Shown here: piece after piece, positions 5,841-62,031 of the stretch
How the letters are laid out: the number at the start of each line of letters is the position of its first letter
How positions within the stretch are numbered: the first letter of the stretch is position 1
From: an uncultured Planctomycetaceae bacterium
GTDB taxonomy: Bacteria; Planctomycetota; Phycisphaerae; SM23-33
Length of the DNA stretch: 64,000 nucleotides
Assembly (NCBI GenBank): GCA_964564285.1
Contig: CAZMBZ010000001.1
Location: 2,508-66,507, forward strand
Direction of reading: 5' to 3'
Program-made: the position numbers and the translations under genes
The notes under the pieces: model-generated
The model's database searches: none
What the model was told of the DNA's origin: nothing
The model's input: the letters and a program-made list of their open reading frames with translations, nothing else

Positions 5841-5844
5841 ACGA

Positions 5845-6429: not shown

Positions 6430-6507
6430 AGCAGATGACACGGTCTCTCCCCAATGTGGTGCCGTACTGTCATCCCAACAAGCACGGCCGGGGCGTTTGG
6501 CCGGTGG

Positions 6508-6719: not shown

Positions 6720-6784
6720 GAACCGCGAGAGATTGGTTTTGGGAAACATGCCTGTGGTCTCAACCTTGATTGGGGCTTTTGCGA

Positions 6785-7483: not shown

Positions 7484-7550
7484 CGAGGGTGTTCAGGAAC
7501 CGACAAAACGGCCTCACGGGCAGACCCCGAGATAGCGTAAGGTCGGTGCA

Positions 7551-7587
7551 GTGCTTACCGGCCCGGCAAGCATATCCGAGGGTTTCT
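7551..7587. repeat. imperfect inverted repeat, right arm (partner 6684-6719)
   Basis: See the left arm. Lies 68 nt after the ankyrin stop and 7 nt before direct-repeat copy 2. Confidence 0.6.
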
Positions 7588-7594
7588 TCAGTTA

Positions 7595-7621
7595 TAGCCC
7601 GCGCCTTTGTTCGTGAATCCC
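7595..7621. repeat. 27-bp direct repeat, copy 2 (partner 6508-6534)
   Basis: 25/27 identity with copy 1. Confidence 0.8.
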
Positions 7622-7747
7622 GCCATGCGCCACTTGCCCCACCACCGGATGGGGACTATTATTGCTCGACTTGACTTGCCGTGGATGGCTACTTGGCTTC
7701 CGACGGCTGGTGTTCGCAAGGCTTTGACACGAGGATCGAAGAGGATC

Positions 7748-39889: not shown

Positions 39890-39976
39890 GGCCGTGGCGG
39901 TGTTCTTGATGCCTGCCTGGGCCTTGACGGCGGTCAAGGCGTCGAGGAAGCGGTCGTAGTCGGCCCGGCGGGTTGA
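39890..39976. repeat. ~85-bp imperfect direct repeat, copy 1 (partner 40207-40290)
   Basis: ggccgtggcggtgttcttgatgcctgcctgggcc...gtcgaggaagcggtcgtagtcggcccggcgggttga versus ggacggtggcgttcttgatgccggcctgggca...gtcgagggagcggttgtagtcggctcggcggttga, roughly three quarters identical by eye. Confidence 0.6.
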
Positions 39977-40206
39977 GCTTGCTAAGGACCACGTCGTCGA
40001 GGCCCGAGTATTCCTTCAGGGCCACATCGTTGATCTCGTCGTAGAGCGGCTCGCGGAGGATGGCCAGGTCGTCCTGGCCGGCGATGGCATTGTGAGAGAG
40101 CTGGATGGCCACCTGCTGCTGGTGGGTCAGCTTGCGGGCGGTGTAAGGGACGGGATATCCGTCAGGCCAGCGTCCCTGGCCTTGGCGTAAGACTTGCTCC
40201 TAGTTC

Positions 40207-40290
40207 GGACGGTGGCGTTCTTGATGCCGGCCTGGGCATTGGCGGTGGTGCGGGCGTCGAGGGAGCGGTTGTAGTCGGCTCGGCGGTTGA
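40207..40290. repeat. ~85-bp imperfect direct repeat, copy 2 (partner 39890-39976)
   Basis: See copy 1. Both encode RADY(N/D)R.LDA.T...AQAGIKN on the minus strand. Confidence 0.6.
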
Positions 40291-43805: not shown

Positions 43806-43875
43806 TTTTCCAGATTATCCCAGGTGCCTAGGCGTTTTGACAGGCGCATGGTTCGTAAGGTTGATAAGAACGAAG

Positions 43876-43906
43876 AAAGGGACGCCTCTCAATGAGGCGT
43901 CCCTTT
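43876..43906. terminator. bidirectional intrinsic terminator between convergent genes
   Basis: aaaGGGACGCCTC-tcaat-GAGGCGTCCCttt. Confidence 0.65.
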
Positions 43907-43936
43907 CATTGCTACCTGTCGTACTTCTGGGGGCGA

Positions 43937-45523
43937 TTATTCGCCGCCGTAGATGTGAGTGGATTCCGTTTCCATTGACGGAGTGTCCATCTGGTCGCTC
44001 TTGAGGCTGACCGCGAACCGGACGTCGCCGGCCTTGAGGCACTTGACCGTCACCTTGTAGACGGCCCGAGCCTTCGGAGCCAGCCTGGCCAGCGGTGCGA
44101 ATGTGACGCTCTTGCCCTTTATCGTTTCCTTAGTCGGGCTGTCTGCGCTGACGAACTGCTGCTCGCCGGGCAGCGTGCAGTCGACGACGATGTTGGTCCC
44201 GACGGCAGAGCCCTGGTTGGTCACAGTGATCTGGTAGGTCTCGGTCGAGCCGATTTCGATCGGGTCGTCGAGGTCTATGCATTCCAGCAGGATCGCCGGG
44301 ATGCCCTTGACTTCCGTGGCCGCGCTGGCGGAAGCGCTTGCGCAGTATGCTGCCGCGCTGGCGACGTTTCGGACGGCGCCGGTCTCATTGAACTTGAGGG
44401 TCAGGGAGGCCTTCTTGGACTGGCCTGGCTTGATCGTGCCAAGCGCCCAAACGACGCTGTTGCCGGTGACCTTGGCGCCCTCGGCGGAAACCAGTGTGGT
44501 GGTGGCTGGAATCGTGTCGGTCAGAACGGTGTTCCTGGCATCGGCATCGCCGTTGTTTGTCACGACGATATTATACGTGCCGGGCCTGCCGATGTATCGC
44601 AAAGCCGGGCCTGTCTTGACGACCTTGAGTTCCGGGTTGAGCACGGACGTGGTCACCGGAGCCGACGTGGCCGCCAGGCCGTGGTCGGCGCTTGCGGTGG
44701 CCGTGTTGGTGAACTTGCCCTTCTTGGCGGCCTTGGCCTGGAAGGAGAACTCTCGGGCTTGGCCTGGATTCAGGTTGCCTGCGTTGAACGTGACGAGCTT
44801 CTTACCGGCGACAGTAGTCAGCCCCTCAGGCAGCGAGTCCTTGACCATAACGTTGCAGGCCGCCCCTGAGCCGTTGTTCTTGACGACGATCTTGTAGGTG
44901 AGCACGTCACAAAGAATCGCCTCTGCGGGTCCGGTCTTGACGACTACGATCGAAGGCTGAACAGCCATGGTGCTCAGGCAGACCTCAGGCATGTCGAAAA
45001 CCACAGACGCGCAGCCCACGACCTGGCCAGGCTTCTGGGCCTTGCCGCGAACGGTGAACATCCTCGACTCGCCTGCCTTGAGCGTACCGATAACCCATTC
45101 GAGTGTGCCGCCTGTTATCGTGCTCTTGGGATTTGTGCCGACCAGTTCCAGATTGGTTACGAGCTTCTCGCGGAGCTTGACGCCCTTGAGGTCGACCTTG
45201 GTTACATTGATAAGCTTGATGACGTAATCGAAGTCGGCGCCGGCGAAGACCTGCTTTGGGGCGGACCTTTCTATGCGGACAACGCCGCACGCCTTATCCC
45301 CGGCCGGCAGGGTCATGTGCGCCATTGCCGTTCCCACGGGTCCGCAAGGGGACGCCGTGGGCATCGGTTTTGGCGGTGCCTTTGGCGGTGCCTTTGGCCG
45401 TGCCTTTGGCGGCGGTGCGACAGCGGGTTCGGGGGTGGCCGGGTTCGGCTCGAAGCAGCAGCCTGTCAGGCCCGCGGCGCATACCGCTACAAGTGCTAAA
45501 GCCCAAAGTCTTCTTTTGTCCAT
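43937..45523 (-). CDS. DUF11-repeat (conserved repeat domain) surface lipoprotein
   Basis: Lipobox AAGLTGC. Pro/Lys/Ala linker. Four to five repeats of the type VVKTGPAEAILCDVLTYKIVVKNNGSGAACNVMVKDSLPEGL. Confidence 0.8.
   Translation of the reverse strand: MDKRRLWALALVAVCAAGLTGCCFEPNPATPEPAVAPPPKARPKAPPKAPPKPMPTASPCGPVGTAMAHMTLPAGDKACGVVRIERSAPKQVFAGADFDYVIKLINVTKVDLKGVKLREKLVTNLELVGTNPKSTITGGTLEWVIGTLKAGESRMFTVRGKAQKPGQVVGCASVVFDMPEVCLSTMAVQPSIVVVKTGPAEAILCDVLTYKIVVKNNGSGAACNVMVKDSLPEGLTTVAGKKLVTFNAGNLNPGQAREFSFQAKAAKKGKFTNTATASADHGLAATSAPVTTSVLNPELKVVKTGPALRYIGRPGTYNIVVTNNGDADARNTVLTDTIPATTTLVSAEGAKVTGNSVVWALGTIKPGQSKKASLTLKFNETGAVRNVASAAAYCASASASAATEVKGIPAILLECIDLDDPIEIGSTETYQITVTNQGSAVGTNIVVDCTLPGEQQFVSADSPTKETIKGKSVTFAPLARLAPKARAVYKVTVKCLKAGDVRFAVSLKSDQMDTPSMETESTHIYGGE
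45375..45410. repeat. 3 x 12-bp tandem repeat inside the DUF11 gene linker
   Basis: ggtgcctttggc, ggtgcctttggc, cgtgcctttggc, encoding PKAPPKAPPKAR on the minus strand. Confidence 0.8.
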
Positions 45524-46161
45524 GATCTGTCCTTTCGTGGTTCAAGTCCCTTGAACATCCATCTACTCTTTTTGCCGTGGCATCCCTGCGGGGCACCCGA
45601 TATGTCGCCGCAGTCTATGCCGTGTCGATAATCAATTCTCACCGCCGAGTCATGCAGATGTGTTACCCTAGAACGGAAGATACATAGTAATGCGATCGGT
45701 TCTGAATCTCAAGCCAATTCTCTTCACTATTGCGGCTCGGCTCAGTCCTCGACCTGTAATAAATCCTAAACCGCGCAAAAGTATAGGACCGCAAATCCGG
45801 GGTTTGCGGCAAGTAATGAGGATTTTTATACATTTGTCGATTACCACCTTGGCGGGGAGGCAAAGATCAGTGGAGTGCTCCAAAAGGCAAAAAGGCGGCG
45901 ATGGGTCGGCGAGGCGGGGACTGGATGTTCGCGATCGGGGCGTGAATCGCGGCACTGGCGAGGCGGCGGGGAAGGGGGCGGTTGGCTTGGGCTTGCAGCC
46001 CGTTTAGAAAACTGCCCTTGCTGCGAGTGGCCCGAATGTCTGCGCGTCTGCGTCAGTATAAAAAGTACTCGACCCCGATGTTCTTCGGGACCTGCGTTTT
46101 CTTCCTTGATGCTCGACATTCTTGCTCGCTCTCGCTGGCGGACCCATTTCCAAACGGGCTG

Positions 46162-46956
46162 CTAACCGGTTATTCGCTGGAAATGCGTGTAGACGTTGAA
46201 GCGTTCGGCGCGGGCGAAGCCCACGAGAGTCAGGCCGAACTTTCGGGCAAGGTCGATCGCCAGGGCCGTGACGGCACCTCTGCCGACGACGATTGGAACA
46301 CGGGCGGCGACGGCTTTGGAGACCATCTCAGCTGAGAGCCTGCCCGTGGTGAGCATGAGCTTGTCGGATGTGTCGAGTTCGTCGAGCACGGCCCGGCCCA
46401 CAACCTTATCGAACGCGTTGTGTCGGCCTATGTCCTCGGCGATTATGGCCAACTCGGCGGCGCTAGCCAGGGCGCACGCGTGTACTCCGCCTGTGTTTTT
46501 CCACAGATCCATCGTTCCCTGAAACTTGCGAACCAGGGCGACGATGTCTTCGGCGTCGACGGTCAGCCCCAGAGTCAAAGGCTGGTATGCCTGCGGGTTC
46601 AACTGCGCCGACGTGCCGCCGCCGCCGCAGCCGGTGCCCCACGTCCATCGTCGTCGGATGGCGTCGAGTGCATCGGGGTCGAATCGTCCGCGGACCAGGA
46701 TGGATCGGCCTGACGGGTCGATATCGACGGAGTCCAGTTCGTCACGGCTTGCGAGCGCGCCCTCGCCGCGAAGGAATCCTACGGCCAGTTCCGGCAACTG
46801 TTTTGGCAGGCAGAGCATGGCCAGGCGAAGTTCGTTGTCGTTGACGACAAGTTCGATGCGAGCTTCGGCTATGACGGCGTCTTCGCAGGCGATGAAGTGC
46901 CCTTTGGCGTACTTGCGGATCGCGCAGATGATTGTCGGTTTGCTTGGTTCGGTCAT
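46162..46956 (-). CDS. fdhD: formate dehydrogenase accessory sulfurtransferase FdhD
   Basis: GGVHACALA, IGRHNAFDKVVGRAVLD, LMLTTGRLSAEMVSKA, GLTLVGFAR..RFNVY family motifs. Confidence 0.88.
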   Translation of the reverse strand: MTEPSKPTIICAIRKYAKGHFIACEDAVIAEARIELVVNDNELRLAMLCLPKQLPELAVGFLRGEGALASRDELDSVDIDPSGRSILVRGRFDPDALDAIRRRWTWGTGCGGGGTSAQLNPQAYQPLTLGLTVDAEDIVALVRKFQGTMDLWKNTGGVHACALASAAELAIIAEDIGRHNAFDKVVGRAVLDELDTSDKLMLTTGRLSAEMVSKAVAARVPIVVGRGAVTALAIDLARKFGLTLVGFARAERFNVYTHFQRITG

Positions 46957-47451: not shown

Positions 47452-49191
47452 ATGGCCCCATCCGTCCCCTCTGACATTGACATATCCCGTGCGTCAACTC
47501 CCAGGCCGATTACCGAGGTCTCAGAGGCGGCGGGTATCGACCAGGAATTCATCGAGCCGTACGGCAGCGTCAAGGCGAAGGTTAAGCTCGGCATTCTCGA
47601 CGCACTGGCCGACAGGCCAAACGGCAAGTACATCGACGTGACGGCCATTACTCCGACGCCGCTGGGCGAGGGCAAAACCACGACCAGCGTCGGCCTGACG
47701 CAGGCGCTGGGTTTGATCGGCAAGAAGGTCTTCATGTGCATTCGCCAGCCATCGATGGGTCCGACTTTCGGCATCAAGGGTGGGGCAGCCGGTGGCGGCT
47801 ACAGCCAGGTCATCCCGATGGAGGAGTTCAACCTTCATCTGACCGGGGACATCCACGCGGTGAGCATCGCCAATAATCTTCTCGCGGCCGCGATTGACGC
47901 TCGGGTGCGTCACGAGGCCCGTCCCGGCTGGGAGTCCAGGGGTCTGCCGACGCTGGATATTGATCCGGAGACCATTACGTGGAGGCGCGTCGTGGATGTC
48001 AACGACGCGACGCTACGTTTCATCGAGACCGGCCTGAGCGACAACTGGATGGACGGCCCGCAGCGCAAGACGGGCTTCGATATATCCGTGGCGTCTGAGG
48101 TGATGGCCATTCTCGCGCTTGCGACCGATGTCAAGGACATGCGAGCGCGCCTCGGGCGGATAATAGTTGCCATGAACCGCAAGGGCGACCCCGTCACGGC
48201 TGAGCAGATCGGCTGCGCGGGTGCGATGATGGTTCTGATGAAGGATGCGGTGAAGCCTAACTTGATGCAGACCATCGAGGGCCAGCCGTCGTTCGTGCAT
48301 GCCGGCCCGTTCGCGAACATCGCCCAGGGCAACAGTTCGATCATCGCCGACCGGATCGCGCTGAAGCTGGCCGATTACGTTGTCACCGAGAGCGGCTTCG
48401 GTGCGGACATCGGCATGGAGAAGTTTTTCGACATCAAGTGTCGCATCAGCGGGCTGCAGCCCGACTGCGTTGTGGTCGTCAGCACGATTCGCGCGTTGAA
48501 AATGCACGGTGGCGGGCCGAAGGTCACCCCGGGTAAGCCTTTGCAGGCGGAATACGTCCAGGAGAACCTGGAGTTGCTGGAAAAGGGCGTCTGCAACATG
48601 GTTCGTTGCATAGAGATCGCCCGCATGTACGGCGTGCCGGTGGTGGTGGCGATAAACCAGTTCCCGACCGATACGCCGGCGGAGTTGGAGCTTGCTCGCA
48701 AGGCGGCTGAGGAGGCGGGTGCCGAGGCCGCCGTCGTTTCGAATCACTGGGCCGAAGGTGGCAAGGGGGCGACAGCCTTGGCTGAGGCGGTTGTCGCGGC
48801 CTGCGAAAAGCCGTCGGACTTCAAGATGCTCTATCCCGACGATATGTCCATCAAGGACAAGATCGAGACCATCTGCAAGAAGGTCTACCTGGCCGGGGCA
48901 GTCGAGTATTCCCCGGAGGCCGACAAGCAGATCGCTTCGTACGAAAAGGCCGGGCTCAGCCATTTGCCGATCTGCATGGCAAAGACGCACCTGTCGCTTA
49001 GCCACGATCCTACGCTCAAGGGCGTGCCGAGCGGATTTACGGTTCCCGTACGCGAGGTCCGTGCCTCGGCCGGGGCGGGCTTCCTCTGCCCGCTGCTGGG
49101 CACGATGCGCACCATGCCCGGTCTGCCGAGCCGACCGTCTTTCCTGGATATCGACCTCGACGAGAACGGCCAGGTCGTCGGAATGTTCTGA
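47452..49191 (+). CDS. fhs: formate--tetrahydrofolate ligase
   Basis: [16 protein letters not shown]-loop; full-length FTHFS similarity ([47 protein letters not shown]). Confidence 0.95.
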
Positions 49192-49253
49192 CCGGCGGAA
49201 AACAAGACTCACGCTCAGGAAGCGGAGGTCGCCGAGAGCGAAGGACCTGCAAT

Positions 49254-50783
49254 ATGCCTATGGGCACTGAGTTTACTCGACGAGGGCTTCTAAGGGCGGG
49301 TATCGGTGCTTTTGCCGGCGTGGCAGCGGCGGGGGCTGGGCCTTTCAGACTGTCGGCCGCGATAGCGGCGGCAGCGAGAACCGGCGGCGCTCGCGGACCC
49401 AATATCGTGCTGATTTTGGCTGACGATCTCGGCTGGTGCGAGCTCGGCAGCTACGGTCAGAAGAAGATCAAGACACCGAACCTCGATCGACTGGCCCGGC
49501 AGGGCATGCGTTTGACGCGCCACTACAGCGGCTCGCCGGTCTGCGCGCCTTCACGCTGCGTGCTGATGACGGGCAAACACCCCGGGCACGCCTTCATTCG
49601 CAATAACAAGGAGGTCAAGCCCGAAGGCCAATACCCCATCCCCGACGGTGAGACTACGATTGCAGAACTGCTCAAGCGGCGCGGCTACACCTGCGGCGCG
49701 TTCGGCAAGTGGGGGCTCGGGCCGGTCGGCTCGACGGGCGACCCGCTCAAGCAGGGCTTCGATCGGTTCTTCGGGTACAACTGCCAGCGTCACGCCCATA
49801 GTTACTATCCGGCTTACCTGTGGGACAACGACAAGCGCATCGAACTGGACAACAAGCCGCCCGCGCCAGGCCATGGGCAACTGCCCGCATCCGCTGACTT
49901 GAGCGACCCGGCCGCGTACCAGAAATACAAGGGCAATGATTACGCACCGAAGCGCATCGCCGATGAGGTGCTGGCCTTCATCAGCGAGAACCGCGAGCGG
50001 CCCTTTTTCGCTTACTATCCGACGATCATCCCGCACCTGGCCCTTCACGTCCCCGATGATGAACTCAAACCGTACATGGGCCAATGGGAGGACAAGCCCT
50101 TCGACGGGCGCGGCGGCTACACCCCGCACGCAACGCCGCGCGCCGCCTATGCAGCCATGATCAGCTACCTGGACAAGCAGGTTGGCCGCATACTCGCACT
50201 GCTGGACAAACTGCACCTCGCGGATAACACCATCGTGGCGTTCTCATCCGACAACGGCGCCACTTACCTGCGCGACGTGGATTACCGGTTCTTCCAGAGT
50301 GTCGGGCCGTTGCGCGGTTTGAAGGGCTCGATCTACGAAGGCGGCTTGCGCGTGCCGGCGATCGTCCGCTGGCCCGGGCGAATCAAGCCCGGCTCGATCA
50401 GTGATCGAATCACCGGCTTCGAAGACTGGATGCCCACGCTGCTTGACCTGATCGGCAAGTCGGGTCACGTTCCCGACTGCGCCGACGGACTGAGCTTCGC
50501 GCCCACGCTGCTCGGTGAATCGCAGAAGCCCCGGCCATTCCTATACCGCGAGTTCTCCGGTTACGGAGGGCAGCAGGCCGTGTGGTTGGGGCCTTACAAG
50601 GCCGTCCGGCAGAAGCTGGGAAAAGGCCGGATCGACACCGAACTCTACAACCTAAGCGACGACATCAGCGAATCGAAGAACGTCGCCGCCGATCATCCCG
50701 AGATCGTCAAGAAGACCGAGCGGATCATGGCCGCGCAACACGAGTCGTCAAAGCTTTTTCCGATCAAGGTTCTGGATCGCTGA
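49254..50783 (+). CDS. arylsulfatase (formylglycine-dependent sulfatase family), Tat-signal, copy 1
   Basis: Twin-arginine signal TRRGLLRAGIGAFAGVAAAGA. ILADDLGW and the CAPSRCVLMTGKHPGH (C-x-P-x-R) formylglycine motif. Confidence 0.9.
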   Translation: MPMGTEFTRRGLLRAGIGAFAGVAAAGAGPFRLSAAIAAAARTGGARGPNIVLILADDLGWCELGSYGQKKIKTPNLDRLARQGMRLTRHYSGSPVCAPSRCVLMTGKHPGHAFIRNNKEVKPEGQYPIPDGETTIAELLKRRGYTCGAFGKWGLGPVGSTGDPLKQGFDRFFGYNCQRHAHSYYPAYLWDNDKRIELDNKPPAPGHGQLPASADLSDPAAYQKYKGNDYAPKRIADEVLAFISENRERPFFAYYPTIIPHLALHVPDDELKPYMGQWEDKPFDGRGGYTPHATPRAAYAAMISYLDKQVGRILALLDKLHLADNTIVAFSSDNGATYLRDVDYRFFQSVGPLRGLKGSIYEGGLRVPAIVRWPGRIKPGSISDRITGFEDWMPTLLDLIGKSGHVPDCADGLSFAPTLLGESQKPRPFLYREFSGYGGQQAVWLGPYKAVRQKLGKGRIDTELYNLSDDISESKNVAADHPEIVKKTERIMAAQHESSKLFPIKVLDR

Positions 50784-50877
50784 ATTGCTACTTGCCGATC
50801 ACGTGATCGGTTTTGGAATCGGTAGAAAGGCCCACAGTGGTCATCGACTGGAGGCTATCCGGGAAACCCCGATTAGT

Positions 50878-53733
50878 ATGAGCATGAAAACGAACTTGAT
50901 GGTCGAATTCGCCTCGGCACCGGTGGCAATCGGCACTCGAACGCCGCGTTTTTCCTGGGAAGTTCCCTTGTCTGGACGCGGCCGGCGCCAAACTGCCTAC
51001 CAAATCCTTGTGGCCTCCGCGGCCGAACTGCTTGTTCCCGGCCGGGCGGACCTGTGGGACAGCGGCAAGGTCAGCTCTTCGCAGTCCGTGAACGTCACTT
51101 ACGCCGGCGCGGAGTTGCCTGGCAACACGGACTTCTTCTGGAAGGTCCGGGTTTGGGACGAGGCCGACAGTCCGGCCGGTTTCAGCCAGGTTGAACCCTT
51201 CGGCACGGCGTTTTTCGACGAAGCCGACTGGAAGGGGCAATGGATCGGACTGGGCGATCCCGACGAGCCGGTTTGCGACCACGAGGCGTTCGTGCGGGAA
51301 CTGGCGGCGACACGGGTGACCAGCGGCAACAGCGCCGACGGTGTGGACTGCGAGCAGTACAAGAAACTGGCGTCGGAAGTTGCGGCCTTGGAGCCGAACT
51401 TGCGTTCGCCGCTGCTGCGGAAGGAGTTCTCCGTCGCCGGCCCGATCAAACGGGCCCGAGCCTTTGTTTGCGGGTTGGGGCTCTACGAGTTGCGGATCAA
51501 CGGGGCGAAGGTCGGCGACGACGTGCTGGTGCCGGCTCGGACGGAATTCCGCAAGCGGGCGCTCTACGCCACCCATGACGTGACCTCGAACCTGCGGGCC
51601 GGCGAAAATGCCGTCGGACTGATTCTCGGCAACGGTTGGTTCAACGGGCAGAAGAAGTACTGGAAATGGCAGATGCCCTGGTACGGTTCGCCGCGGGTCA
51701 TTGTCCAGATCGTAATCGAACGCGAGGACGGCGTGACGCAGTGCATCGTCACCGATGGGTCCTGGCAGGGGGCTTGGGGACCCATCACGTTCAACTGCAT
51801 TTACGACGGCGAGAACTACGACGCCCGGGCCGAACAGGAAGGCTGGGACGATCCCGGCTTCGACGCTTCAGCGTGGCGGCAGGTCAATGTGGTTCCCGGC
51901 CCCGGCGGTGCGCTCACACCGGCTGCACTCGAAGCGGACAAAGTGGTCGAGACCTTCAGGCCGGTCTCCATGTGGGAGAGCGGACCGGGGGTGTACGTCT
52001 ACGACTTCGGACGCAACATGACCGGATGGGTGCGATTGAGAATTGTCGGCGGTGTCTCCGGCGGGACCGTGCAACTGCGGTTCGCCGAGCGGATCCATGA
52101 CAACGGCAAGCTCAACCCCGCAACCGCCGGCGGCGCCCGCCAGGCGGACAACTACACCATGAAGGGCGCTGATGAGGAATTCTACGAGCCTCGCTTCACC
52201 TACCACGGTTTCCAGTACGTGGAGTTGACCGGCTACCCCGGCACGCCGGAACTGGACACGGTGGAAGGCTGCTTCGCCCACGCCGACGTGGGGCGGATCG
52301 GCGACTTCGAGTGCGGCCACGAGTTGATCAACAAGATACACCACTGCACCGTCCAGTCCCAACTCTGCAACATCCAGATGGGCGTCGTCACCGACGACAC
52401 CCAGCGTGCCGAACGCCTGGGCTGGTGCGGCGACATCTGGGCGATGGCGAACGAGTCTTACTACAACCTTTGGATGCCCCGCATCTACGCCAAGTGGATT
52501 GACGACTGCCGCGATCAGCAGGATGAACTGGGGATGATCGGCTTTATCACCCCGCTACCGGTCCCGGACGAAGATCTGGTCTGGAGCGCGGCATTCGTGA
52601 TGGTGCCGTGGATGCAGTATCTGCATTGCGGCGACGTAAGGCTTCTCCAGCAGAGCTACCCGGCCTTGCAGCGGTATATCAGCTATCTCGAAGCTACCGG
52701 GACCAGGGAAATCTCCACGTTTCCGTCGGAGGGCGATTTGGCCAACAAACTGAGGTGGCGGTGCAGCAAGGAAGACCGCTTTCCCGCCGAAGCCGACCGG
52801 GGCTACCTGCAGATTGCCAGGTTCGGCGATCACCTGGCCACCAGTGAGGGCGCGTCGGGATTCGGCAAGAATCAGCCCCTTTCGATCGCGACGGCCTTCT
52901 ACTACTTCGATGTCGCCACCATGGCCCGGATCGCCGAGATTCTCGGCAGGGACGCAGACGCGGCGAGATACCACCGGCTGGCCGGGAAGATCAAGGACGC
53001 TTTCAACGAGCGTTTCTTCGACCCCAACTGGGGCTACTACGACGTGGGCTGCCAGAGCGCCCAAGCTTGGCCGCTGTCCTTTGGGATGGTTCCCGAGGAG
53101 CACCGCGAAAGGGTCTCGAACTATCTGTGCAGCAATGTGGACTTCCGTCAGCGGCGACTCACGACCGGGTACGCCGGCACGAAGTGGGCGATCCACGCCA
53201 TGGCTCTGGCCGGCCGAAACGACGCCGTCTGGCACCGGGCCATCGCCACGGACTACCCGAGTTGGGGTTACATGCTGCGCGACCCCATCCGGACCACCAT
53301 CACCGAAAACTGGCACGGCGCCGCCTCGCTTTGCCATACCGCATTGGGGGCGGCGATAGACGAATGGTTCTACTGGGGCCTTGCGGGCATCCAGCCGGAC
53401 GAAACCGGACCCGGGTACGAGAAGATCATCTTCAAGCCGTACCTGCCCGCGGACCTGCCGTGGGCGAGGGCGTCCCTGCGCACCATGCGGGGCACAATCG
53501 TCTCGGCCTGGCGCAGGGATGGCGAGACGGCGTTCCTTACCCTCACCATCCCGGCCAACAGCACCGCGACGGTCCATATCCCGGCGGGGGACGTCGAGCA
53601 AATTACCGAGTGCGGCGTCTCATGCACCCAGGCCGAGGGCGTCGTCCTCCTGCGCTCGGAAAACGGCGAGACCGTCTTCGAGGTTGGCTCGGGAACCTAT
53701 CGCTTCGCATTCCCGGCACCGAGTGTGGATTAG
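50878..53733 (+). CDS. alpha-L-rhamnosidase (GH78), copy 1
   Basis: N-terminal PRFSWEV...AYQILVAS...[12 protein letters not shown]...FFWKVRVWD pattern typical of bacterial GH78. Six-hairpin catalytic-region length. ATG 50878 chosen; the track start 50785 is an upstream extension. Confidence 0.85.
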
Positions 53734-53749
53734 CCCGAAGCCCCATCAG

Positions 53750-53920
53750 GGCGTGCCAACTGGATTTACGGTTCCCGTACGCGAGGTCCGTGCCTCGGCC
53801 GGGGCGGGCTTCCTCTGCCCGCTGCTGGGCACGATGCGCACCATGCCCGGTCTGCCGAGCCGACCGTCTTTCCTGGATATCGACCTCGACGAGAACGGCC
53901 AGGTCGTCGGAATGTTCTGA
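53750..53920 (+). pseudogene. orphan 3' fragment of fhs (last ~55 codons) created by the duplication
   Basis: Encodes ..[56 protein letters not shown], matching the fhs C-terminus apart from Ser to Thr. No upstream fhs body. Confidence 0.85.
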
Positions 53921-53982
53921 CCGGCGGAAAACAAGACTCACGCTCAGGAAGCGGAGGTCGCCGAGAGCGAAGGACCTGCAAT

Positions 53983-55512
53983 ATGCCTATGGGCACTGAG
54001 TTTACTCGACGAGGGCTTCTAAGGGCGGGTATCGGTGCTTTTGCCGGCGTGGCAGCGGCGGGGGCTGGGCCTTTCAGACTGTCGGCCGCGATAGCGGCGG
54101 CAGCGAGAACCGGCGGCGCTCGCGGACCCAATATCGTGCTGATTTTGGCTGACGATCTCGGCTGGTGCGAGCTCGGCAGCTACGGTCAGAAGAAGATCAA
54201 GACACCGAACCTCGATCGACTGGCCCGGCAGGGCATGCGTTTGACGCGCCACTACAGCGGCTCGCCGGTCTGCGCGCCTTCACGCTGCGTGCTGATGACG
54301 GGCAAACACCCCGGGCACGCCTTCATTCGCAATAACAAGGAGGTCAAGCCCGAAGGCCAATACCCCATCCCCGACGGTGAGACTACGATTGCAGAACTGC
54401 TCAAGCGGCGCGGCTACACCTGCGGCGCGTTCGGCAAGTGGGGGCTCGGGCCGGTCGGCTCGACGGGCGACCCGCTCAAGCAGGGCTTCGATCGGTTCTT
54501 CGGGTACAACTGCCAGCGTCACGCCCATAGTTACTATCCGGCTTACCTGTGGGACAACGACAAGCGCATCGAACTGGACAACAAGCCGCCCGCGCCAGGC
54601 CATGGGCAACTGCCCGCATCCGCTGACTTGAGCGACCCGGCCGCGTACCAGAAATACAAGGGCAATGATTACGCACCGAAGCGCATCGCCGATGAGGTGC
54701 TGGCCTTCATCAGCGAGAACCGCGAGCGGCCCTTTTTCGCTTACTATCCGACGATCATCCCGCACCTGGCCCTTCACGTCCCCGATGATGAACTCAAACC
54801 GTACATGGGCCAATGGGAGGACAAGCCCTTCGACGGGCGCGGCGGCTACACCCCGCACGCAACGCCGCGCGCCGCCTATGCAGCCATGATCAGCTACCTG
54901 GACAAGCAGGTTGGCCGCATACTCGCACTGCTGGACAAACTGCACCTCGCGGATAACACCATCGTGGCGTTCTCATCCGACAACGGCGCCACTTACCTGC
55001 GCGACGTGGATTACCGGTTCTTCCAGAGTGTCGGGCCGTTGCGCGGTTTGAAGGGCTCGATCTACGAAGGCGGCTTGCGCGTGCCGGCGATCGTCCGCTG
55101 GCCCGGGCGAATCAAGCCCGGCTCGATCAGTGATCGAATCACCGGCTTCGAAGACTGGATGCCCACGCTGCTTGACCTGATCGGCAAGTCGGGTCACGTT
55201 CCCGACTGCGCCGACGGACTGAGCTTCGCGCCCACGCTGCTCGGTGAATCGCAGAAGCCCCGGCCATTCCTATACCGCGAGTTCTCCGGTTACGGAGGGC
55301 AGCAGGCCGTGTGGTTGGGGCCTTACAAGGCCGTCCGGCAGAAGCTGGGAAAAGGCCGGATCGACACCGAACTCTACAACCTAAGCGACGACATCAGCGA
55401 ATCGAAGAACGTCGCCGCCGATCATCCCGAGATCGTCAAGAAGACCGAGCGGATCATGGCCGCGCAACACGAGTCGTCAAAGCTTTTTCCGATCAAGGTT
55501 CTGGATCGCTGA
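53983..55512 (+). CDS. arylsulfatase, copy 2 (translation identical to 49254-50783)
   Basis: Same 509-aa translation in the track. Confidence 0.9.
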   Translation: MPMGTEFTRRGLLRAGIGAFAGVAAAGAGPFRLSAAIAAAARTGGARGPNIVLILADDLGWCELGSYGQKKIKTPNLDRLARQGMRLTRHYSGSPVCAPSRCVLMTGKHPGHAFIRNNKEVKPEGQYPIPDGETTIAELLKRRGYTCGAFGKWGLGPVGSTGDPLKQGFDRFFGYNCQRHAHSYYPAYLWDNDKRIELDNKPPAPGHGQLPASADLSDPAAYQKYKGNDYAPKRIADEVLAFISENRERPFFAYYPTIIPHLALHVPDDELKPYMGQWEDKPFDGRGGYTPHATPRAAYAAMISYLDKQVGRILALLDKLHLADNTIVAFSSDNGATYLRDVDYRFFQSVGPLRGLKGSIYEGGLRVPAIVRWPGRIKPGSISDRITGFEDWMPTLLDLIGKSGHVPDCADGLSFAPTLLGESQKPRPFLYREFSGYGGQQAVWLGPYKAVRQKLGKGRIDTELYNLSDDISESKNVAADHPEIVKKTERIMAAQHESSKLFPIKVLDR

Positions 55513-55606
55513 ATTGCTACTTGCCGATCACGTGATCGGTTTTGGAATCGGTAGAAAGGCCCACAGTGGTCATCGACTGGAGGCTATCCGGGAAACCCCG
55601 ATTAGT

Positions 55607-58462
55607 ATGAGCATGAAAACGAACTTGATGGTCGAATTCGCCTCGGCACCGGTGGCAATCGGCACTCGAACGCCGCGTTTTTCCTGGGAAGTTCCCTTGT
55701 CTGGACGCGGCCGGCGCCAAACTGCCTACCAAATCCTTGTGGCCTCCGCGGCCGAACTGCTTGTTCCCGGCCGGGCGGACCTGTGGGACAGCGGCAAGGT
55801 CAGCTCTTCGCAGTCCGTGAACGTCACTTACGCCGGCGCGGAGTTGCCTGGCAACACGGACTTCTTCTGGAAGGTCCGGGTTTGGGACGAGGCCGACAGT
55901 CCGGCCGGTTTCAGCCAGGTTGAACCCTTCGGCACGGCGTTTTTCGACGAAGCCGACTGGAAGGGGCAATGGATCGGACTGGGCGATCCCGACGAGCCGG
56001 TTTGCGACCACGAGGCGTTCGTGCGGGAACTGGCGGCGACACGGGTGACCAGCGGCAACAGCGCCGACGGTGTGGACTGCGAGCAGTACAAGAAACTGGC
56101 GTCGGAAGTTGCGGCCTTGGAGCCGAACTTGCGTTCGCCGCTGCTGCGGAAGGAGTTCTCCGTCGCCGGCCCGATCAAACGGGCCCGAGCCTTTGTTTGC
56201 GGGTTGGGGCTCTACGAGTTGCGGATCAACGGGGCGAAGGTCGGCGACGACGTGCTGGTGCCGGCTCGGACGGAATTCCGCAAGCGGGCGCTCTACGCCA
56301 CCCATGACGTGACCTCGAACCTGCGGGCCGGCGAAAATGCCGTCGGACTGATTCTCGGCAACGGTTGGTTCAACGGGCAGAAGAAGTACTGGAAATGGCA
56401 GATGCCCTGGTACGGTTCGCCGCGGGTCATTGTCCAGATCGTAATCGAACGCGAGGACGGCGTGACGCAGTGCATCGTCACCGATGGGTCCTGGCAGGGG
56501 GCTTGGGGACCCATCACGTTCAACTGCATTTACGACGGCGAGAACTACGACGCCCGGGCCGAACAGGAAGGCTGGGACGATCCCGGCTTCGACGCTTCAG
56601 CGTGGCGGCAGGTCAATGTGGTTCCCGGCCCCGGCGGTGCGCTCACACCGGCTGCACTCGAAGCGGACAAAGTGGTCGAGACCTTCAGGCCGGTCTCCAT
56701 GTGGGAGAGCGGACCGGGGGTGTACGTCTACGACTTCGGACGCAACATGACCGGATGGGTGCGATTGAGAATTGTCGGCGGTGTCTCCGGCGGGACCGTG
56801 CAACTGCGGTTCGCCGAGCGGATCCATGACAACGGCAAGCTCAACCCCGCAACCGCCGGCGGCGCCCGCCAGGCGGACAACTACACCATGAAGGGCGCTG
56901 ATGAGGAATTCTACGAGCCTCGCTTCACCTACCACGGTTTCCAGTACGTGGAGTTGACCGGCTACCCCGGCACGCCGGAACTGGACACGGTGGAAGGCTG
57001 CTTCGCCCACGCCGACGTGGGGCGGATCGGCGACTTCGAGTGCGGCCACGAGTTGATCAACAAGATACACCACTGCACCGTCCAGTCCCAACTCTGCAAC
57101 ATCCAGATGGGCGTCGTCACCGACGACACCCAGCGTGCCGAACGCCTGGGCTGGTGCGGCGACATCTGGGCGATGGCGAACGAGTCTTACTACAACCTTT
57201 GGATGCCCCGCATCTACGCCAAGTGGATTGACGACTGCCGCGATCAGCAGGATGAACTGGGGATGATCGGCTTTATCACCCCGCTACCGGTCCCGGACGA
57301 AGATCTGGTCTGGAGCGCGGCATTCGTGATGGTGCCGTGGATGCAGTATCTGCATTGCGGCGACGTAAGGCTTCTCCAGCAGAGCTACCCGGCCTTGCAG
57401 CGGTATATCAGCTATCTCGAAGCTACCGGGACCAGGGAAATCTCCACGTTTCCGTCGGAGGGCGATTTGGCCAACAAACTGAGGTGGCGGTGCAGCAAGG
57501 AAGACCGCTTTCCCGCCGAAGCCGACCGGGGCTACCTGCAGATTGCCAGGTTCGGCGATCACCTGGCCACCAGTGAGGGCGCGTCGGGATTCGGCAAGAA
57601 TCAGCCCCTTTCGATCGCGACGGCCTTCTACTACTTCGATGTCGCCACCATGGCCCGGATCGCCGAGATTCTCGGCAGGGACGCAGACGCGGCGAGATAC
57701 CACCGGCTGGCCGGGAAGATCAAGGACGCTTTCAACGAGCGTTTCTTCGACCCCAACTGGGGCTACTACGACGTGGGCTGCCAGAGCGCCCAAGCTTGGC
57801 CGCTGTCCTTTGGGATGGTTCCCGAGGAGCACCGCGAAAGGGTCTCGAACTATCTGTGCAGCAATGTGGACTTCCGTCAGCGGCGACTCACGACCGGGTA
57901 CGCCGGCACGAAGTGGGCGATCCACGCCATGGCTCTGGCCGGCCGAAACGACGCCGTCTGGCACCGGGCCATCGCCACGGACTACCCGAGTTGGGGTTAC
58001 ATGCTGCGCGACCCCATCCGGACCACCATCACCGAAAACTGGCACGGCGCCGCCTCGCTTTGCCATACCGCATTGGGGGCGGCGATAGACGAATGGTTCT
58101 ACTGGGGCCTTGCGGGCATCCAGCCGGACGAAACCGGACCCGGGTACGAGAAGATCATCTTCAAGCCGTACCTGCCCGCGGACCTGCCGTGGGCGAGGGC
58201 GTCCCTGCGCACCATGCGGGGCACAATCGTCTCGGCCTGGCGCAGGGATGGCGAGACGGCGTTCCTTACCCTCACCATCCCGGCCAACAGCACCGCGACG
58301 GTCCATATCCCGGCGGGGGACGTCGAGCAAATTACCGAGTGCGGCGTCTCATGCACCCAGGCCGAGGGCGTCGTCCTCCTGCGCTCGGAAAACGGCGAGA
58401 CCGTCTTCGAGGTTGGCTCGGGAACCTATCGCTTCGCATTTCCGGCACCGAGTGTGGATTAG
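55607..58462 (+). CDS. alpha-L-rhamnosidase (GH78), copy 2 (translation identical to copy 1)
   Basis: Same translation in the track. One synonymous difference, TTC versus TTT (Phe). Confidence 0.85.
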   Translation: MSMKTNLMVEFASAPVAIGTRTPRFSWEVPLSGRGRRQTAYQILVASAAELLVPGRADLWDSGKVSSSQSVNVTYAGAELPGNTDFFWKVRVWDEADSPAGFSQVEPFGTAFFDEADWKGQWIGLGDPDEPVCDHEAFVRELAATRVTSGNSADGVDCEQYKKLASEVAALEPNLRSPLLRKEFSVAGPIKRARAFVCGLGLYELRINGAKVGDDVLVPARTEFRKRALYATHDVTSNLRAGENAVGLILGNGWFNGQKKYWKWQMPWYGSPRVIVQIVIEREDGVTQCIVTDGSWQGAWGPITFNCIYDGENYDARAEQEGWDDPGFDASAWRQVNVVPGPGGALTPAALEADKVVETFRPVSMWESGPGVYVYDFGRNMTGWVRLRIVGGVSGGTVQLRFAERIHDNGKLNPATAGGARQADNYTMKGADEEFYEPRFTYHGFQYVELTGYPGTPELDTVEGCFAHADVGRIGDFECGHELINKIHHCTVQSQLCNIQMGVVTDDTQRAERLGWCGDIWAMANESYYNLWMPRIYAKWIDDCRDQQDELGMIGFITPLPVPDEDLVWSAAFVMVPWMQYLHCGDVRLLQQSYPALQRYISYLEATGTREISTFPSEGDLANKLRWRCSKEDRFPAEADRGYLQIARFGDHLATSEGASGFGKNQPLSIATAFYYFDVATMARIAEILGRDADAARYHRLAGKIKDAFNERFFDPNWGYYDVGCQSAQAWPLSFGMVPEEHRERVSNYLCSNVDFRQRRLTTGYAGTKWAIHAMALAGRNDAVWHRAIATDYPSWGYMLRDPIRTTITENWHGAASLCHTALGAAIDEWFYWGLAGIQPDETGPGYEKIIFKPYLPADLPWARASLRTMRGTIVSAWRRDGETAFLTLTIPANSTATVHIPAGDVEQITECGVSCTQAEGVVLLRSENGETVFEVGSGTYRFAFPAPSVD

Positions 58463-58730
58463 CCCGAAGCCCCGCCAAGGCGTGCGGCGGCATCCACGGC
58501 ACGCCCGGTAGCGCGGGTGCCAAAGGTATGGCGAACAGAGGGTCAGAAGGTCAAAGACCCTCTATCGGCCCAAGAAAAGGTTCATGACCCCTCGGCTCTC
58601 CAACCCGGAGGTCGTGGCGGTAAGCGCAAGTAGGGCAATCCGTCGCCACTGCCGGCAGATAACCGGGATTTCTCGGAACTCTTGCGGGCGAGCCGCGTCC
58701 AAGTCCTGGTACGCAAACAGGAGATGGGCT

Positions 58731-61250
58731 ATGCGCAGATCGATGATATTGGCGGCCGGGCTGGTTCTGGTCGGGGCACAAGCTTGGGCGGCCGGTGACG
58801 ATGCGAAGGGCAATTCCTCAAAGACAGCGGCGACTGCAGTCGAGATCGCCAGGCTGATCGAGCAGCTCGGCGGCGAGACGTCAGCCGACCGCAATGCTGC
58901 CCAGAAGGCGATCGAGAAGATGGGGGAGCCGGCCGCTGAGGCCCTGAAGGCCGCCACGACCGACAAAAACGCCGAACGGGCGGCGCGGGCGGAGGTAGCC
59001 CTGCACCAGATCGAAAAGGTGGTCCGCCAGGAGTGGATCCGCAAGACCGACGAGCGAATGTCCGCCGTGCTGCGTGCGTGGAAACAGGCCGGCAAGGCGG
59101 GGCCAGGCGCTGGCGCAAAGGAGATTCGCAGGCTCATCGAGCAGCTTGGCGCATCGATGGCGGCGCAGCGCAGCGCCGCCCAGCAGTCGCTGGTCAAGAT
59201 CGGCCTGCCCGCCGCCGAGGCGCTGACGGCCGCAACGAAAGACGCCAACCTCGAGCGGGCAGCGCGAGCCAAAGCCGCCCTGGCCCAGATGGCCGTTCGC
59301 AAGGAGGATTGGCCCGTCCATTGGCGGAACATGACCTTCTCGTACAGGATCCTCTCGCCCGATCCCAACCAGTGCAAAGCCGTGGGCATTGATTCCGACC
59401 TGCGGGGTGTGTTTATCTGGTGGAACCCGGCTGCCAAGACATTTGCCAAGGCGGAATGGACGCACCCGCAAGAAGATCAAGAAGGACTGCATATGCTGCA
59501 CAGGTCTTTGGGTAAGCGTCGGCCGTGGGTGGCGAGTGAATCGCCTGGCAAGGCCTGGCAGGCCGACAACGCGCGGGTTGAGCTTGTCATCACGTTGGGA
59601 GACCGATTCGCCCGCTTCTGCGAGCCCTGGTCGCCCGGCAACCCACCCGAAGGCTCGCGCATTGTGTCGATCCACACCCTCAACAAGATCCTGCCCCTGC
59701 AGGGCATAGCCCGCAGGGAACTGAGAATTTGGAAGAAGTCGGGCGGGACCCGTCCGGCCGTCGCGGTCACGCGCGGCGAAGGCAAGAAGCCCCAGGTCCC
59801 ACCTGGCGAGTTCGGCGAGGAAGAAGCATTAGCCCAGGCCAAGAAACTCATCGCCGAAGCGCGACGGACCGGCAAGTCGTTGCCGACGGGAGATAGGGAG
59901 CCGCTGGCCTCGGCCGATCCCGCCGGGCCCTTCAACGTCTCGGGGAAGGCCTACACGGCCCAGGCTGCCTACGAGAAGACCTACAACGCTGTCGGGAGGA
60001 ATAGCCGGCCCGGCAAGGCTGCCCCCAACACCCCTGCCGCGCGGGCCGCGTTCGCCAAGGTCGAGCGGATGTACCTCGATGCGATCAAGAAGTTCGGAGT
60101 GAACAAATACGGCGCCTCAACTCAACGGGAGCTCGCCAGGGCCTACCGCTATGCGGGACAAAAGGAGCAATTCAAGGAATGGGGCAACCGGGCCGAGCAG
60201 ACCAAGCTCGTGGCCGCCAAACTCAAAGAACTCACCCGCCGTCGACGCGAGGGCGGCGACTGGCCCGAGCTGGCGGCCGTGATGCGGCTGCTTAACAACC
60301 CGGGCAAGGTCTCGCGGGAGGACCTTGCCGCTCCGCTGGCGGCGTTGGGTGATCGGTCCGACGAGGCCGTCGCCGCGATCACCGAGGAGTTCTGGGCGTT
60401 GGGCTCTCGCGGAGCATATTGCTCGCGCGTAATCACGTCGCTAAGCATTATCGACACCCCGGCCAGCCGGAAGGCCATGCTCAAGCTCGCCCTCGACGGC
60501 GGGCACAAGGACGACCGCGGGCTGATCCGGTCCGCGGCGAGAGCGTATATCAGACTGCTGCCCGACAAGGCCGGCGCCAAGTGCCTGCTGGCCGCCTCGG
60601 ACTCCGACGTGGTCACCCAGGCCATCGGGCATCTGCGCGGCGAGCCAATCGACAAGCCGATGCTCGCCCGCCTGCTGGAACTGATGCGAACCGGCGATCA
60701 CAACATGCGGTTCCAGGTCGTGCAGAACTTCGGCCAGGACCCCGGCGGGAAGTTCATCACCGAGAAGGTCGCCGCCATCGTCAAGGCGATTCCGAAGATA
60801 GCCGGCATGCCCGAGGCCGATAAGACGGCCTGGCCTGCAAATTGGACCAAGGCGGAACTCCGCTATCGGTTGTACTTCGACGCCCTGTCGAAGCTGACCA
60901 ATCCCCCCGAACCGATCGACAAGGCCCTTGCGGCCGCCAAGGAAGGCGACGCGGTATGGCGCTGCCTGGTGCTGGCTCGCGGGCTGGCGGGCGACGCCAA
61001 GGCCCGCCCCGGGCTGCGGAAGATTCTCGCCGACGCCAAAGCGGGGACGTTCCGCGTCTGGGCGTGCGAAGCGCTGGGCAAGATCGGCTCAGCCGAGGAC
61101 CTGCCGCTGCTGCGCGAGACGGCCGCCAAGGACCCCATGCAGCGCAAATGCCGCGGCCACATGGTCCCAAGGAGCAAGGAATTCTTCCACCCCGTCCGCG
61201 AGGCCGCGGGCCGGGCGATCAAGCTGATCGAAGAAGGCAAGGGGGACTGA
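58731..61250 (+). CDS. secreted HEAT/ARM-like repeat protein
   Basis: AGGAG lies 7 nt before ATG 58731. Signal peptide MRRSMILAAGLVLVGAQAWA. Two N-terminal ~90-aa repeats (I.RLIEQLG....R.AAQ......G.PAAEAL.AAT.D.N.ERAARA). C-terminal HEAT-like units (VWACEALGKIGSAEDLPLL, VREAAGRAI). Confidence 0.7.
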   Translation: MRRSMILAAGLVLVGAQAWAAGDDAKGNSSKTAATAVEIARLIEQLGGETSADRNAAQKAIEKMGEPAAEALKAATTDKNAERAARAEVALHQIEKVVRQEWIRKTDERMSAVLRAWKQAGKAGPGAGAKEIRRLIEQLGASMAAQRSAAQQSLVKIGLPAAEALTAATKDANLERAARAKAALAQMAVRKEDWPVHWRNMTFSYRILSPDPNQCKAVGIDSDLRGVFIWWNPAAKTFAKAEWTHPQEDQEGLHMLHRSLGKRRPWVASESPGKAWQADNARVELVITLGDRFARFCEPWSPGNPPEGSRIVSIHTLNKILPLQGIARRELRIWKKSGGTRPAVAVTRGEGKKPQVPPGEFGEEEALAQAKKLIAEARRTGKSLPTGDREPLASADPAGPFNVSGKAYTAQAAYEKTYNAVGRNSRPGKAAPNTPAARAAFAKVERMYLDAIKKFGVNKYGASTQRELARAYRYAGQKEQFKEWGNRAEQTKLVAAKLKELTRRRREGGDWPELAAVMRLLNNPGKVSREDLAAPLAALGDRSDEAVAAITEEFWALGSRGAYCSRVITSLSIIDTPASRKAMLKLALDGGHKDDRGLIRSAARAYIRLLPDKAGAKCLLAASDSDVVTQAIGHLRGEPIDKPMLARLLELMRTGDHNMRFQVVQNFGQDPGGKFITEKVAAIVKAIPKIAGMPEADKTAWPANWTKAELRYRLYFDALSKLTNPPEPIDKALAAAKEGDAVWRCLVLARGLAGDAKARPGLRKILADAKAGTFRVWACEALGKIGSAEDLPLLRETAAKDPMQRKCRGHMVPRSKEFFHPVREAAGRAIKLIEEGKGD

Positions 61251-61401
61251 CGAATAAATCACACACGGCAGCCTCTGGCACCCTTCGCGATCCCCGCCTG
61301 GACGGAGGCCGACCGAGAAACGGGGTCAGCCCTTATTGTAAGAAGGTACTACAAAGCATCCCAGTCTCTTTGGACCACCATTTGCCGTCATGCCCAATTA
61401 T

Positions 61402-62031
61402 CTAGACAGTCATCGCCTCGCCGGGCTGGAGGAGTTTGCCCTGGCACTCGGTGGTCTGGACGAACTGCTCGGCGTCAGTGATGGAACCGACGATATCGCC
61501 CCAGTGGTAGGGCACGGCTGACTTGCAGCCGATGGCCTTGCAGGCGCGGGCGGCCTCGGCGGCGTTGAGCGTATAGGTTCCGCCGACCGGCAGCAGCGCG
61601 ACGTCCACTCCCTGAAGCTCTTCCATTTCCGGGATCAAGTCAGTGTCGCCGGCGTAGTACACGCGTTTGGCGTCGATGGTCAGCACCACGCCGATCCACT
61701 GGTTGGATCGGGGGTGGAAGGCCTTGTCGACGTTGTAGGCCGCGACGGCCTCGACGGTCACGCCCTTGATGGTAATGTTGTCGCCAGGGGTGACGGCGCT
61801 GGCGATCCGCATCTTGGCGACGACGTCGCCGGGCGCGATGATGGCGGTGTCTTCCTTGGCGATCTTCTCGATGTCATCGGGTGAGAAGTGGTCGTGATGG
61901 CTGTGGGATACGATTACGAGGTCGGCGTCGTGCGGCGACTGGTCCAGCTTCCACGGGTCTATGTACGTTACCGATTCGGTGCCGGCGATACGGAAGCTCG
62001 CGTGGCCTAACCATTTGATTTCGACCGACAT
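61402..62031 (-). CDS. MBL-fold metal-dependent hydrolase (UPF0173-like)
   Basis: VIVSHSHHDHFSPDDI (H-x-H-x-D-H). AAGGAG lies before ATG 62031. Confidence 0.8.
   Translation of the reverse strand: MSVEIKWLGHASFRIAGTESVTYIDPWKLDQSPHDADLVIVSHSHHDHFSPDDIEKIAKEDTAIIAPGDVVAKMRIASAVTPGDNITIKGVTVEAVAAYNVDKAFHPRSNQWIGVVLTIDAKRVYYAGDTDLIPEMEELQGVDVALLPVGGTYTLNAAEAARACKAIGCKSAVPYHWGDIVGSITDAEQFVQTTECQGKLLQPGEAMTV

Follow-up and report, generated by a model that had tools for sequence, protein, structure and literature searches.

A head-to-tail repeat of a sulfatase and GH78 rhamnosidase unit in an uncultured planctomycete, probably a microhomology-mediated tandem duplication

Does a near-perfect tandem repeat of several kilobases in a contig of an uncultured bacterium record an event in the organism, or was it made during assembly? 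The question is raised by a stretch of 64,000 nt from an uncultured Planctomycetaceae bacterium (contig CAZMBZ010000001.1 of assembly GCA_964564285.1), referred to below as the window and always meaning the whole stretch, in which a unit carrying a sulfatase gene and a GH78 alpha-L-rhamnosidase gene occurs twice in succession. A first-pass annotation of this DNA had put the choice as one between a real, possibly unstable gene amplification and an assembly artefact, and this is still the right question. The sequence comparisons described here lead us to consider it probable, with a good measure of doubt, that the repeat is a genuine tandem segmental duplication, mediated by microhomology and carried by all or part of the population sampled.

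The repeat was compared base by base. Positions 49019-53756 recur as 53748-58485 at an offset of 4,729 nt, head-to-tail and with no spacer, which confirms the exact 4,729-bp recurrence reported before. A unit of 4,729 nt is thereby delimited on the plus strand at 49019..53747 (copy 1) and 53748..58476 (copy 2), and the identity of copy 2 with copy 1 extends to 58485 via the microhomology described below. A repeat search of the 64-kb window returned the same offset and no second large repeat. Only seven mismatches exist between the copies (49029, 49031, 49032, 53712, 53745, 53746 and 53749), all of them at most 13 nt from the left edge or at most 45 nt from the right edge. Over the 4,679 nt in between (49033-53711) the copies are identical. 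The mismatch at 53712 (C, against T at 58441) is a third-position change in a Phe codon (TTC/TTT) of the rhamnosidase gene, and both copies encode identical proteins. This one synonymous difference stood as first described; the "few mismatches" mentioned at the unit ends could be refined, since six bases near the junction match neither parental edge. The duplication is internal to the source contig of 76,973 nt, with its right end 5.5 kb before the end of the window, and does not represent an overlap of contig ends.

Each unit comprises the last 173 nt of fhs, a 62-nt spacer, the S1 sulfatase gene (509 aa) and the GH78 rhamnosidase gene, in agreement with the earlier description, which had estimated the fhs part at ~170 nt. 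All of these genes are read from the plus strand. The intact fhs gene (formate-tetrahydrofolate ligase, 47452..49191; Pfam FTHFS, E = 2.6e-256) provides with its last 173 nt the beginning of copy 1. It is followed by sulfatase copy 1 (49254..50783; Pfam Sulfatase PF00884, E = 7.7e-59) and rhamnosidase copy 1 (50884..53733), which has 949 aa when read from the ATG called in the single-copy strain L001 introduced below; the mechanical open reading frame (ORF) begins at 50785. Copy 2 opens with a 173-nt duplicated fhs 3' fragment (53748..53920), a non-functional remnant, and continues with sulfatase copy 2 (53983..55512) and rhamnosidase copy 2 (55613..58462, mechanical ORF from 55514).

What joined the two copies? 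Each junction base was set against its two parents, namely the right end of copy 2 and the fhs stretch with which copy 1 begins. Up to 53748 the junction reads like the sequence behind GH78, and from 53749 on it reads like fhs. Seven nucleotides, GGCGTGC, are common to both parents (49021-27 = 53750-56 = 58479-85), and the crossover lies within them. In a simulation on the window, an in-register match of at least 7 nt was obtained for ~0.07% (7e-4) of random breakpoint pairs. The right-hand parent of the junction is the GGCGTGC within fhs (49021..49027). The left-hand parent is the left arm of a hairpin-like inverted repeat, GGCGTGC...GCACGCC (58479..58505), that lies 17 nt behind the GH78 stop codon and has a 7-bp stem, of which the junction keeps the left arm only. 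The resulting novel junction, ATCA-GGGCGTGCC-AACTGG (53745..53763), is unique in the window, and the 31-mer of the junction is CCCCATCAGGGCGTGCCAACTGGATTTACGG. Within the published scheme for bacterial tandem duplications (bioRxiv 10.64898/2026.05.22.727201), this junction fits the microhomology class and carries no signature of homologous recombination.

Several other origins of the breakpoints were considered and rejected. The repeat search and the Pfam survey revealed no long flanking repeat, insertion sequence (IS) or rRNA element at the duplication boundaries, and the Pfam survey of the larger window ORFs contained no transposase; a duplication mediated by an IS or by long repeats was rejected because the locus has no such elements. 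A strong hairpin driving breakage was rejected because the folding energy of the 7-bp stem is not above that of shuffled sequence (z = 0.92). The right end is also not regarded as the boundary of a mobile cassette. In BLAST comparisons with GH78 orthologues from four contexts, homology ends at ~58474-58475, which is where coding-level conservation ends, and in two more distant loci (L107 and L093) diverged homology, including the hairpin at the same place, persists beyond this point. Finally, a template for the junction 19-mer elsewhere in the window was rejected, as no second site was found at up to three mismatches.

The junction sequence itself differs from both of its parents. Six bases (53712, 53745, 53746, 53758, 53760 and 53761) match neither parental edge, and all of them lie between -38 and +11 nt from the crossover. 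An even spread of differences over the unit would place all six in a given stretch of 50 nt with a probability of ~1e-12. In the fhs fragment at the junction, three codons read CCA ACT GGA (Pro-Thr-Gly). The same codons are CCG ACG GGA in three contigs of related species, CCG ACC GGC in the sister strain and CCG AGC GGA, with Ser, in the intact fhs gene of the window. The junction fragment hence still encodes the ancestral Thr, and its only differences from the outgroups are at third codon positions. It looks like a natural fhs allele that evolved in a working fhs gene; no locus retrieved to that point had this allele. At position 53712, copy 1 shares the ancestral C with four more distant GH78 homologues (L100, L107, L093 and L067), and the derived T is present in copy 2 (58441) and in strain L001. 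With six private bases, one of them an ancestral C, the junction is therefore no copy of the flanks in their present form, and by this comparison it is assigned to a haplotype different from theirs. Two explanations can account for this. The event may have arisen in a genome that had other alleles, with later recombination or gene conversion replacing the flanks and the interior. Alternatively, several strains co-exist and the contig is their consensus, only some of them having supplied the junction. Judged from these bases, a chimera formed from DNA of the dominant strain cannot give rise to them.

The first-pass annotation had suggested a comparison of copy number in related strains. The sole other assembly of the species that could be read, L001 (ENA ERZ27317826, contig k141_795824, 21.7 kb), is 99.5-99.8% identical to the window (99.7%). 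It contains a contiguous single-copy arrangement of fhs, sulfatase, GH78 and HEAT gene and is identical to both window copies over 4,565 nt of the interior. Because this near-identical strain has one copy, the duplication is polymorphic at best, or else confined to this one assembly. The MEGAHIT-style contig name and the unbroken path over both boundaries suggest that the junction is absent or rare in the L001 sample. The 90% cluster of the sulfatase has a single member, and no further strains of the species are on record. Differences between the window and L001 are concentrated in short patches of 4-19% divergence (48141-48501, 48993-49035, 53601-53650, 61579-61660 and 63729-63804), separated by kilobases of perfect identity, and affect mostly third codon positions. 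The patch at 48993-49035 spans the left boundary of the duplication. As far as the alignment tells, this pattern fits short recombination imports or a strain-mosaic consensus.

These results allow the possibility of an assembly artefact to be weighed. If the repeat were an artefact, a two-copy genome would not exist, and the assembler would have threaded a spurious or low-abundance link from the GH78 end to fhs and used one edge twice. In a short-read assembly a repeat is one graph edge traversed twice, and interiors are therefore identical by construction. Differences would be possible only within one k-mer of the boundaries, and 4,679 identical interior nucleotides with boundary-near differences are indeed the pattern observed and the expected result of traversing a de Bruijn loop. 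Further points weigh against a genuine duplication as well. The source is very probably a metagenome-assembled genome (MAG): the species of the window is absent among the GTDB representative genomes scanned, and its exact fhs, GH78 and FdhD proteins are recorded at NCBI, those of GH78 and FdhD also at JGI/IMG. The organism belongs to the Phycisphaerae (Planctomycetota); its fhs and sulfatase genes have 87-90% nucleotide identity to contigs of a Phycisphaerae MAG. As it stands, the two-copy state is known from the assembled contig alone, and the one independent assembly of the species has a single copy. When JGI metagenome contigs were searched for the junction (exact, gap-tolerant), 0 matches were obtained. 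Library chimeras, too, form at microhomology. However, even an artefactual connecting edge would need real reads containing the junction, and among the six bases found in neither edge are an ancestral base and synonymous fhs variants that look natural. Moreover, a microhomology of 7 nt is much shorter than what could mislead an assembler, and the duplication is located away from the contig end. We therefore regard an artefact as unlikely.

How old is the duplication? The near-identity of the copies had been taken as a sign of youth. This does not follow, given that the junction haplotype differs from both edges and copy 1 has the ancestral C at 53712. The identity of the interior may instead reflect homogenisation, or a de Bruijn assembler that used one graph edge twice. 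We considered a real but old array under concerted evolution, in which conversion or unequal crossing-over, together with recombination with single-copy strains, homogenises the interior and L001 is a collapsed revertant. The last tens of nucleotides beside the unique junction would not be convertible and hence would have diverged. Consistent with such an array, all seven differences lie at most 45 nt from the unit boundaries, and C in copy 1 with T in copy 2 and L001 is expected of a collapse that keeps the right end of copy 2. The short, highly divergent patches between window and L001 are likewise typical of recombination tracts. Yet the duplication must postdate the lineage-specific insertion of GH78 described below, tandem duplications are normally lost fast without selection, and ~12% divergence over 50 nt at the junction is very high for strains that are 99.7% identical; the haplotype of another strain is the simpler explanation. 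An old array thus appears distinctly improbable to us.

The number of copies in the population could also be higher, with at least three copies or mixed copy numbers, the contig showing the minimal two. Short reads cannot count the copies of a perfect 4.7-kb repeat, and amplified arrays typically vary in copy number. Nevertheless, there is no direct evidence for more copies, and the sequence does not separate two from more. We hold such an array to be very unlikely.

For the duplication that we favour, the event would be an illegitimate, microhomology-mediated joining by template switching or slipped realignment. The GGCGTGC located 17 nt past the GH78 stop would have been joined to the same 7-mer inside the fhs 3' end, with fhs - sulfatase - GH78 - ('fhs 173 nt) - sulfatase - GH78 - HEAT gene as the product. 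A partial fhs fragment is the expected residue of a segmental event of this kind. The consequence would be a doubled dose of an exported S1_20-type sulfatase and an apparently cytoplasmic GH78 enzyme. The hairpin behind copy 1 would be destroyed, and copy 2 would be transcribed by read-through plus its own upstream sequences. Scans of 48.8-58.8 kb with promoter and terminator consensus sequences gave nothing beyond shuffled expectation, and transcription of copy 2 is therefore something that we infer. The one match of an Rfam scan, the tRNA-Val at 35360, lies outside the unit, in which no RNA element was found.

Which reactions would be doubled? The sulfatase had been annotated as a formylglycine-type enzyme with a twin-arginine translocation (Tat) signal. 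The first part is supported by the motif CAPSR (C/S-x-P-x-R type). For the second part, a Tat-like N-terminal TRRGLLRAG is seen in the translation, and no match to a Tat-signal hidden Markov model was obtained. The closest solved relatives are two enzymes of Bacteroides thetaiotaomicron, BT1622 (PDB 7ANA/7ANB, E = 5e-133) and BT1636 (7AN1, E = 6e-93; also 7OQD), exo-acting S1_20 sulfatases that remove the 3-O-sulfate from galactose (Gal) or N-acetylgalactosamine (GalNAc). Like these enzymes, the window sulfatase has the CxPxR motif and the S1_20 signature: its CQRHAHSYYP matches the published signature exactly, with the Gln/His dyad that confers selectivity for galacto-configured sugars. On this evidence the enzyme is classified as S1_20-like, of the 3-O-sulfo-galactose type, and not as an S1_25-type rhamnose-3-sulfate sulfatase. 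The residues that recognise O2 of Gal (E334/R353 of BT1636, N334/C357 of BT1622) were not recovered in one pairwise alignment, a tentative result: a Leu is aligned to E334/N334, and the short loop with R353/C357 is gapped. Recognition of O2, and hence the exact substrate, may differ from that of BT1622 and BT1636. The hosts differ as well, a gut Bacteroides in their case and an environmental planctomycete here.

The rhamnosidase contains five domains above cut-off (Ig_Rha78A_N, Bac_rhamnosid_N, Bac_rhamnosid, Bac_rhamnosid6H and Bac_rhamnosid_C). Its matches in the PDB are 6I60 (1.6e-176) and 3W5M (9.5e-128), enzymes of Dictyoglomus and Streptomyces. No signal peptide is visible at its N-terminus, and the protein is apparently cytoplasmic.

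The neighbourhood of the sulfatase gene in relatives points to a late arrival of GH78. In the Phycisphaerae MAG (~87% nucleotide identity) the locus reads fhs - sulfatase - metallo-beta-lactamase-fold gene, and both GH78 and the HEAT gene are missing. The second related species, with a sulfatase 89% identical in aa, has the order fhs - sulfatase - unrelated 837-aa repeat protein - same beta-lactamase-fold gene. Sulfatase orthologues with 86-89% aa identity thus adjoin fhs without GH78, and among more than 60 loci with sulfatase homologues no close GH78 neighbour was found, except for a distant one in L047. The GH78 orthologue of the second species is located elsewhere, behind genes for a GH65 protein, a sugar-phosphate isomerase-like protein and a dehydrogenase, and adjoins an rve-family transposase and a different sulfatase. 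It (L100-L104 and L108; ENA ERZ2479465x-67x) is 92.2% identical in nucleotides, without gaps, to window 50791-53744, compared to 85-87% for flanking housekeeping genes. The higher identity of GH78 and its transposase-adjoining second locus therefore indicate that the gene moved recently by horizontal transfer and was inserted immediately behind the stop codon of a sulfatase gene already in place.

The inserted cassette includes a 105-nt region upstream of GH78 that opens with a perfect 16-nt palindrome, CCGATCACGTGATCGG, at 50795..50810 in copy 1 and 55524..55539 in copy 2. These are its two sites in the window, compared to 0.03 expected, and they lie ~75 nt upstream of the GH78 start. With one change the palindrome is kept upstream of the sister-species orthologue at its different locus (L100 9900-9915). 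It is possibly an operator, and we list it as a candidate. The slot between sulfatase and beta-lactamase-fold gene (50786-61401 in single-copy terms) is hypervariable: it is empty in one relative (L065 225-491), holds the 837-aa internally repetitive protein in L096 (11538-14599) and holds GH78 with an 839-aa HEAT protein in the window. By this comparison the HEAT gene is part of the same lineage-specific insert as GH78. This downstream gene is present once (58731..61250, plus strand; mechanical ORF from 58584) and its 839-aa product has a HEAT repeat at the C-terminus. The HEAT-repeat protein (58584-61250, 839-888 aa) has no match in PDB sequences or NCBIfam; its sole Pfam match is the C-terminal HEAT_2, and among the loci fetched it was found in the species of the window only. 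A pair of adjacent GH78 paralogues of the same clade, 64% identical in aa, is present in the metagenome contig L081 (JGI Ga0233432_10007763; 2918-5731 and 5762-8629), and L080 is likewise listed. The L081 pair is an old tandem duplication of the same rhamnosidase type in another organism.

The pairing of sulfatase and rhamnosidase had suggested an action on sulfated rhamnose glycans such as ulvan or rhamnan sulfate. This idea is weakened by the S1_20-like character of the sulfatase and by the lack of conservation of the pairing. Features of an ulvan locus, namely an S1_25 partner, an accompanying lyase or GH88/GH105 enzyme and a conserved sulfatase-GH78 adjacency, were not found: the sulfatase is of another type, the adjacency is not kept in relatives, and the Pfam scan of the proteins from larger window ORFs contained no ulvan lyase and no GH88/GH105. 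Relatives in the GH78 clade are often located near other, unrelated S1 sulfatases. This gives weak, generic support for a role in the degradation of sulfated glycans, in phyla that are crowded with sulfatases. Taken together, the gene orders suggest that the partnership of sulfatase and rhamnosidase is recent and not an evolved module. A scenario of innovation and amplification in the wild would combine these observations. A fresh GH78 cassette would have landed behind an S1_20-type sulfatase, and the pair would have been amplified and kept for its dosage on a sulfated rhamnose/galactose glycan. The array would segregate among strains, with L001 as a revertant, the interior gene-converted and the junction keeping the founding haplotype. 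As a joint claim this scenario is doubtful.

The setting of the duplication is an ordinary chromosomal region, with genes for IF-2, NusA, ClpB, HisG, pyruvate kinase, MnmA, tRNA-Val, FdhD, fhs and an Fe-S assembly cluster; a GH31 and an M36 peptidase were also present in the Pfam survey of the larger ORFs. Adjoining FdhD on the minus strand is a gene (43937-45523) whose 528-aa product combines DUF11 repeats with a region like Chlamydia OMP6. The segment that holds it (43808-46172) is missing in the sister species, as nucleotide homology to L096 skips from 43808 to 46172, and it is another lineage-specific insertion. The protein encoded at 762-5840 has 1,692 aa, an M36 metallopeptidase domain of the fungalysin type and repeated internal segments (2769/3645 and 3519/4407), and an ankyrin-repeat protein is encoded next (6770-7483); both are unusual in bacteria. 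Smaller repeats are found at 28702-28824, where three GC-rich repeats of 39-45 nt stand in tandem within an ORF that has no Pfam match (28530-29450), and upstream of clpB at 39896-40286, where two direct repeats of 76 nt share 84% identity and are 315 nt apart.

If real, the duplication would be a case of natural copy-number variation that affects glycan-degrading genes right after their horizontal acquisition in an uncultured planctomycete. Such duplications are familiar from laboratory selections and are rarely resolved in environmental genomes. Its main message is one of caution, as an assembler may impose the interior identity of tandem repeats. Near-perfect kilobase repeats in metagenome contigs are not datable or trustworthy from the contig alone.

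Several known systems invite comparison. The protein P36 of the Formosa agariphila ulvan polysaccharide utilisation locus (PUL) is a GH78/S1_25 hybrid, in which the sulfatase desulfates rhamnose 3-sulfate (Rha3S) at the non-reducing end before GH78 removes the rhamnose (PMC8511951). In the window, an S1 sulfatase and a GH78 enzyme are likewise encoded together and in the same orientation. However, they are two separate genes, their adjacency stems from the recent insertion of GH78, and the sulfatase is S1_20-like and not S1_25. P36 is part of a PUL, whereas the window pair sits among housekeeping genes.

False duplications made by assemblers share with this locus the identical interiors, the confinement of differences to the boundaries and the origin from a metagenome-derived contig. 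They are expected at contig ends or overlaps, with a junction that has no sequence of its own. Here, in contrast, the repeat is internal to the contig, and its junction lies at a biologically typical microhomology and has its own haplotype with six private bases, which requires reads from a distinct template.

The closest likeness is to bacterial amplifications with short junctions that arise independently of RecA, which are well documented, among them the 7-13 kb amplifications of sdrM, whose junctions have microhomology or no homology (PMC11721125). In both cases the copies are arranged head-to-tail with a single novel junction. The window repeat has a 7-nt microhomology with no flanking repeat of at least 35 bp, comprises whole genes plus a truncated fragment and is polymorphic between near-identical strains. 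Unlike the amplifications selected in the laboratory, it comes from an environmental, metagenome-derived genome with no known selective agent and is seen in a contig only, and unlike the known short-junction amplifications its junction haplotype differs from both parental edges. It adds one more case to a class of events that is very well known, and its enzymes come from known families.

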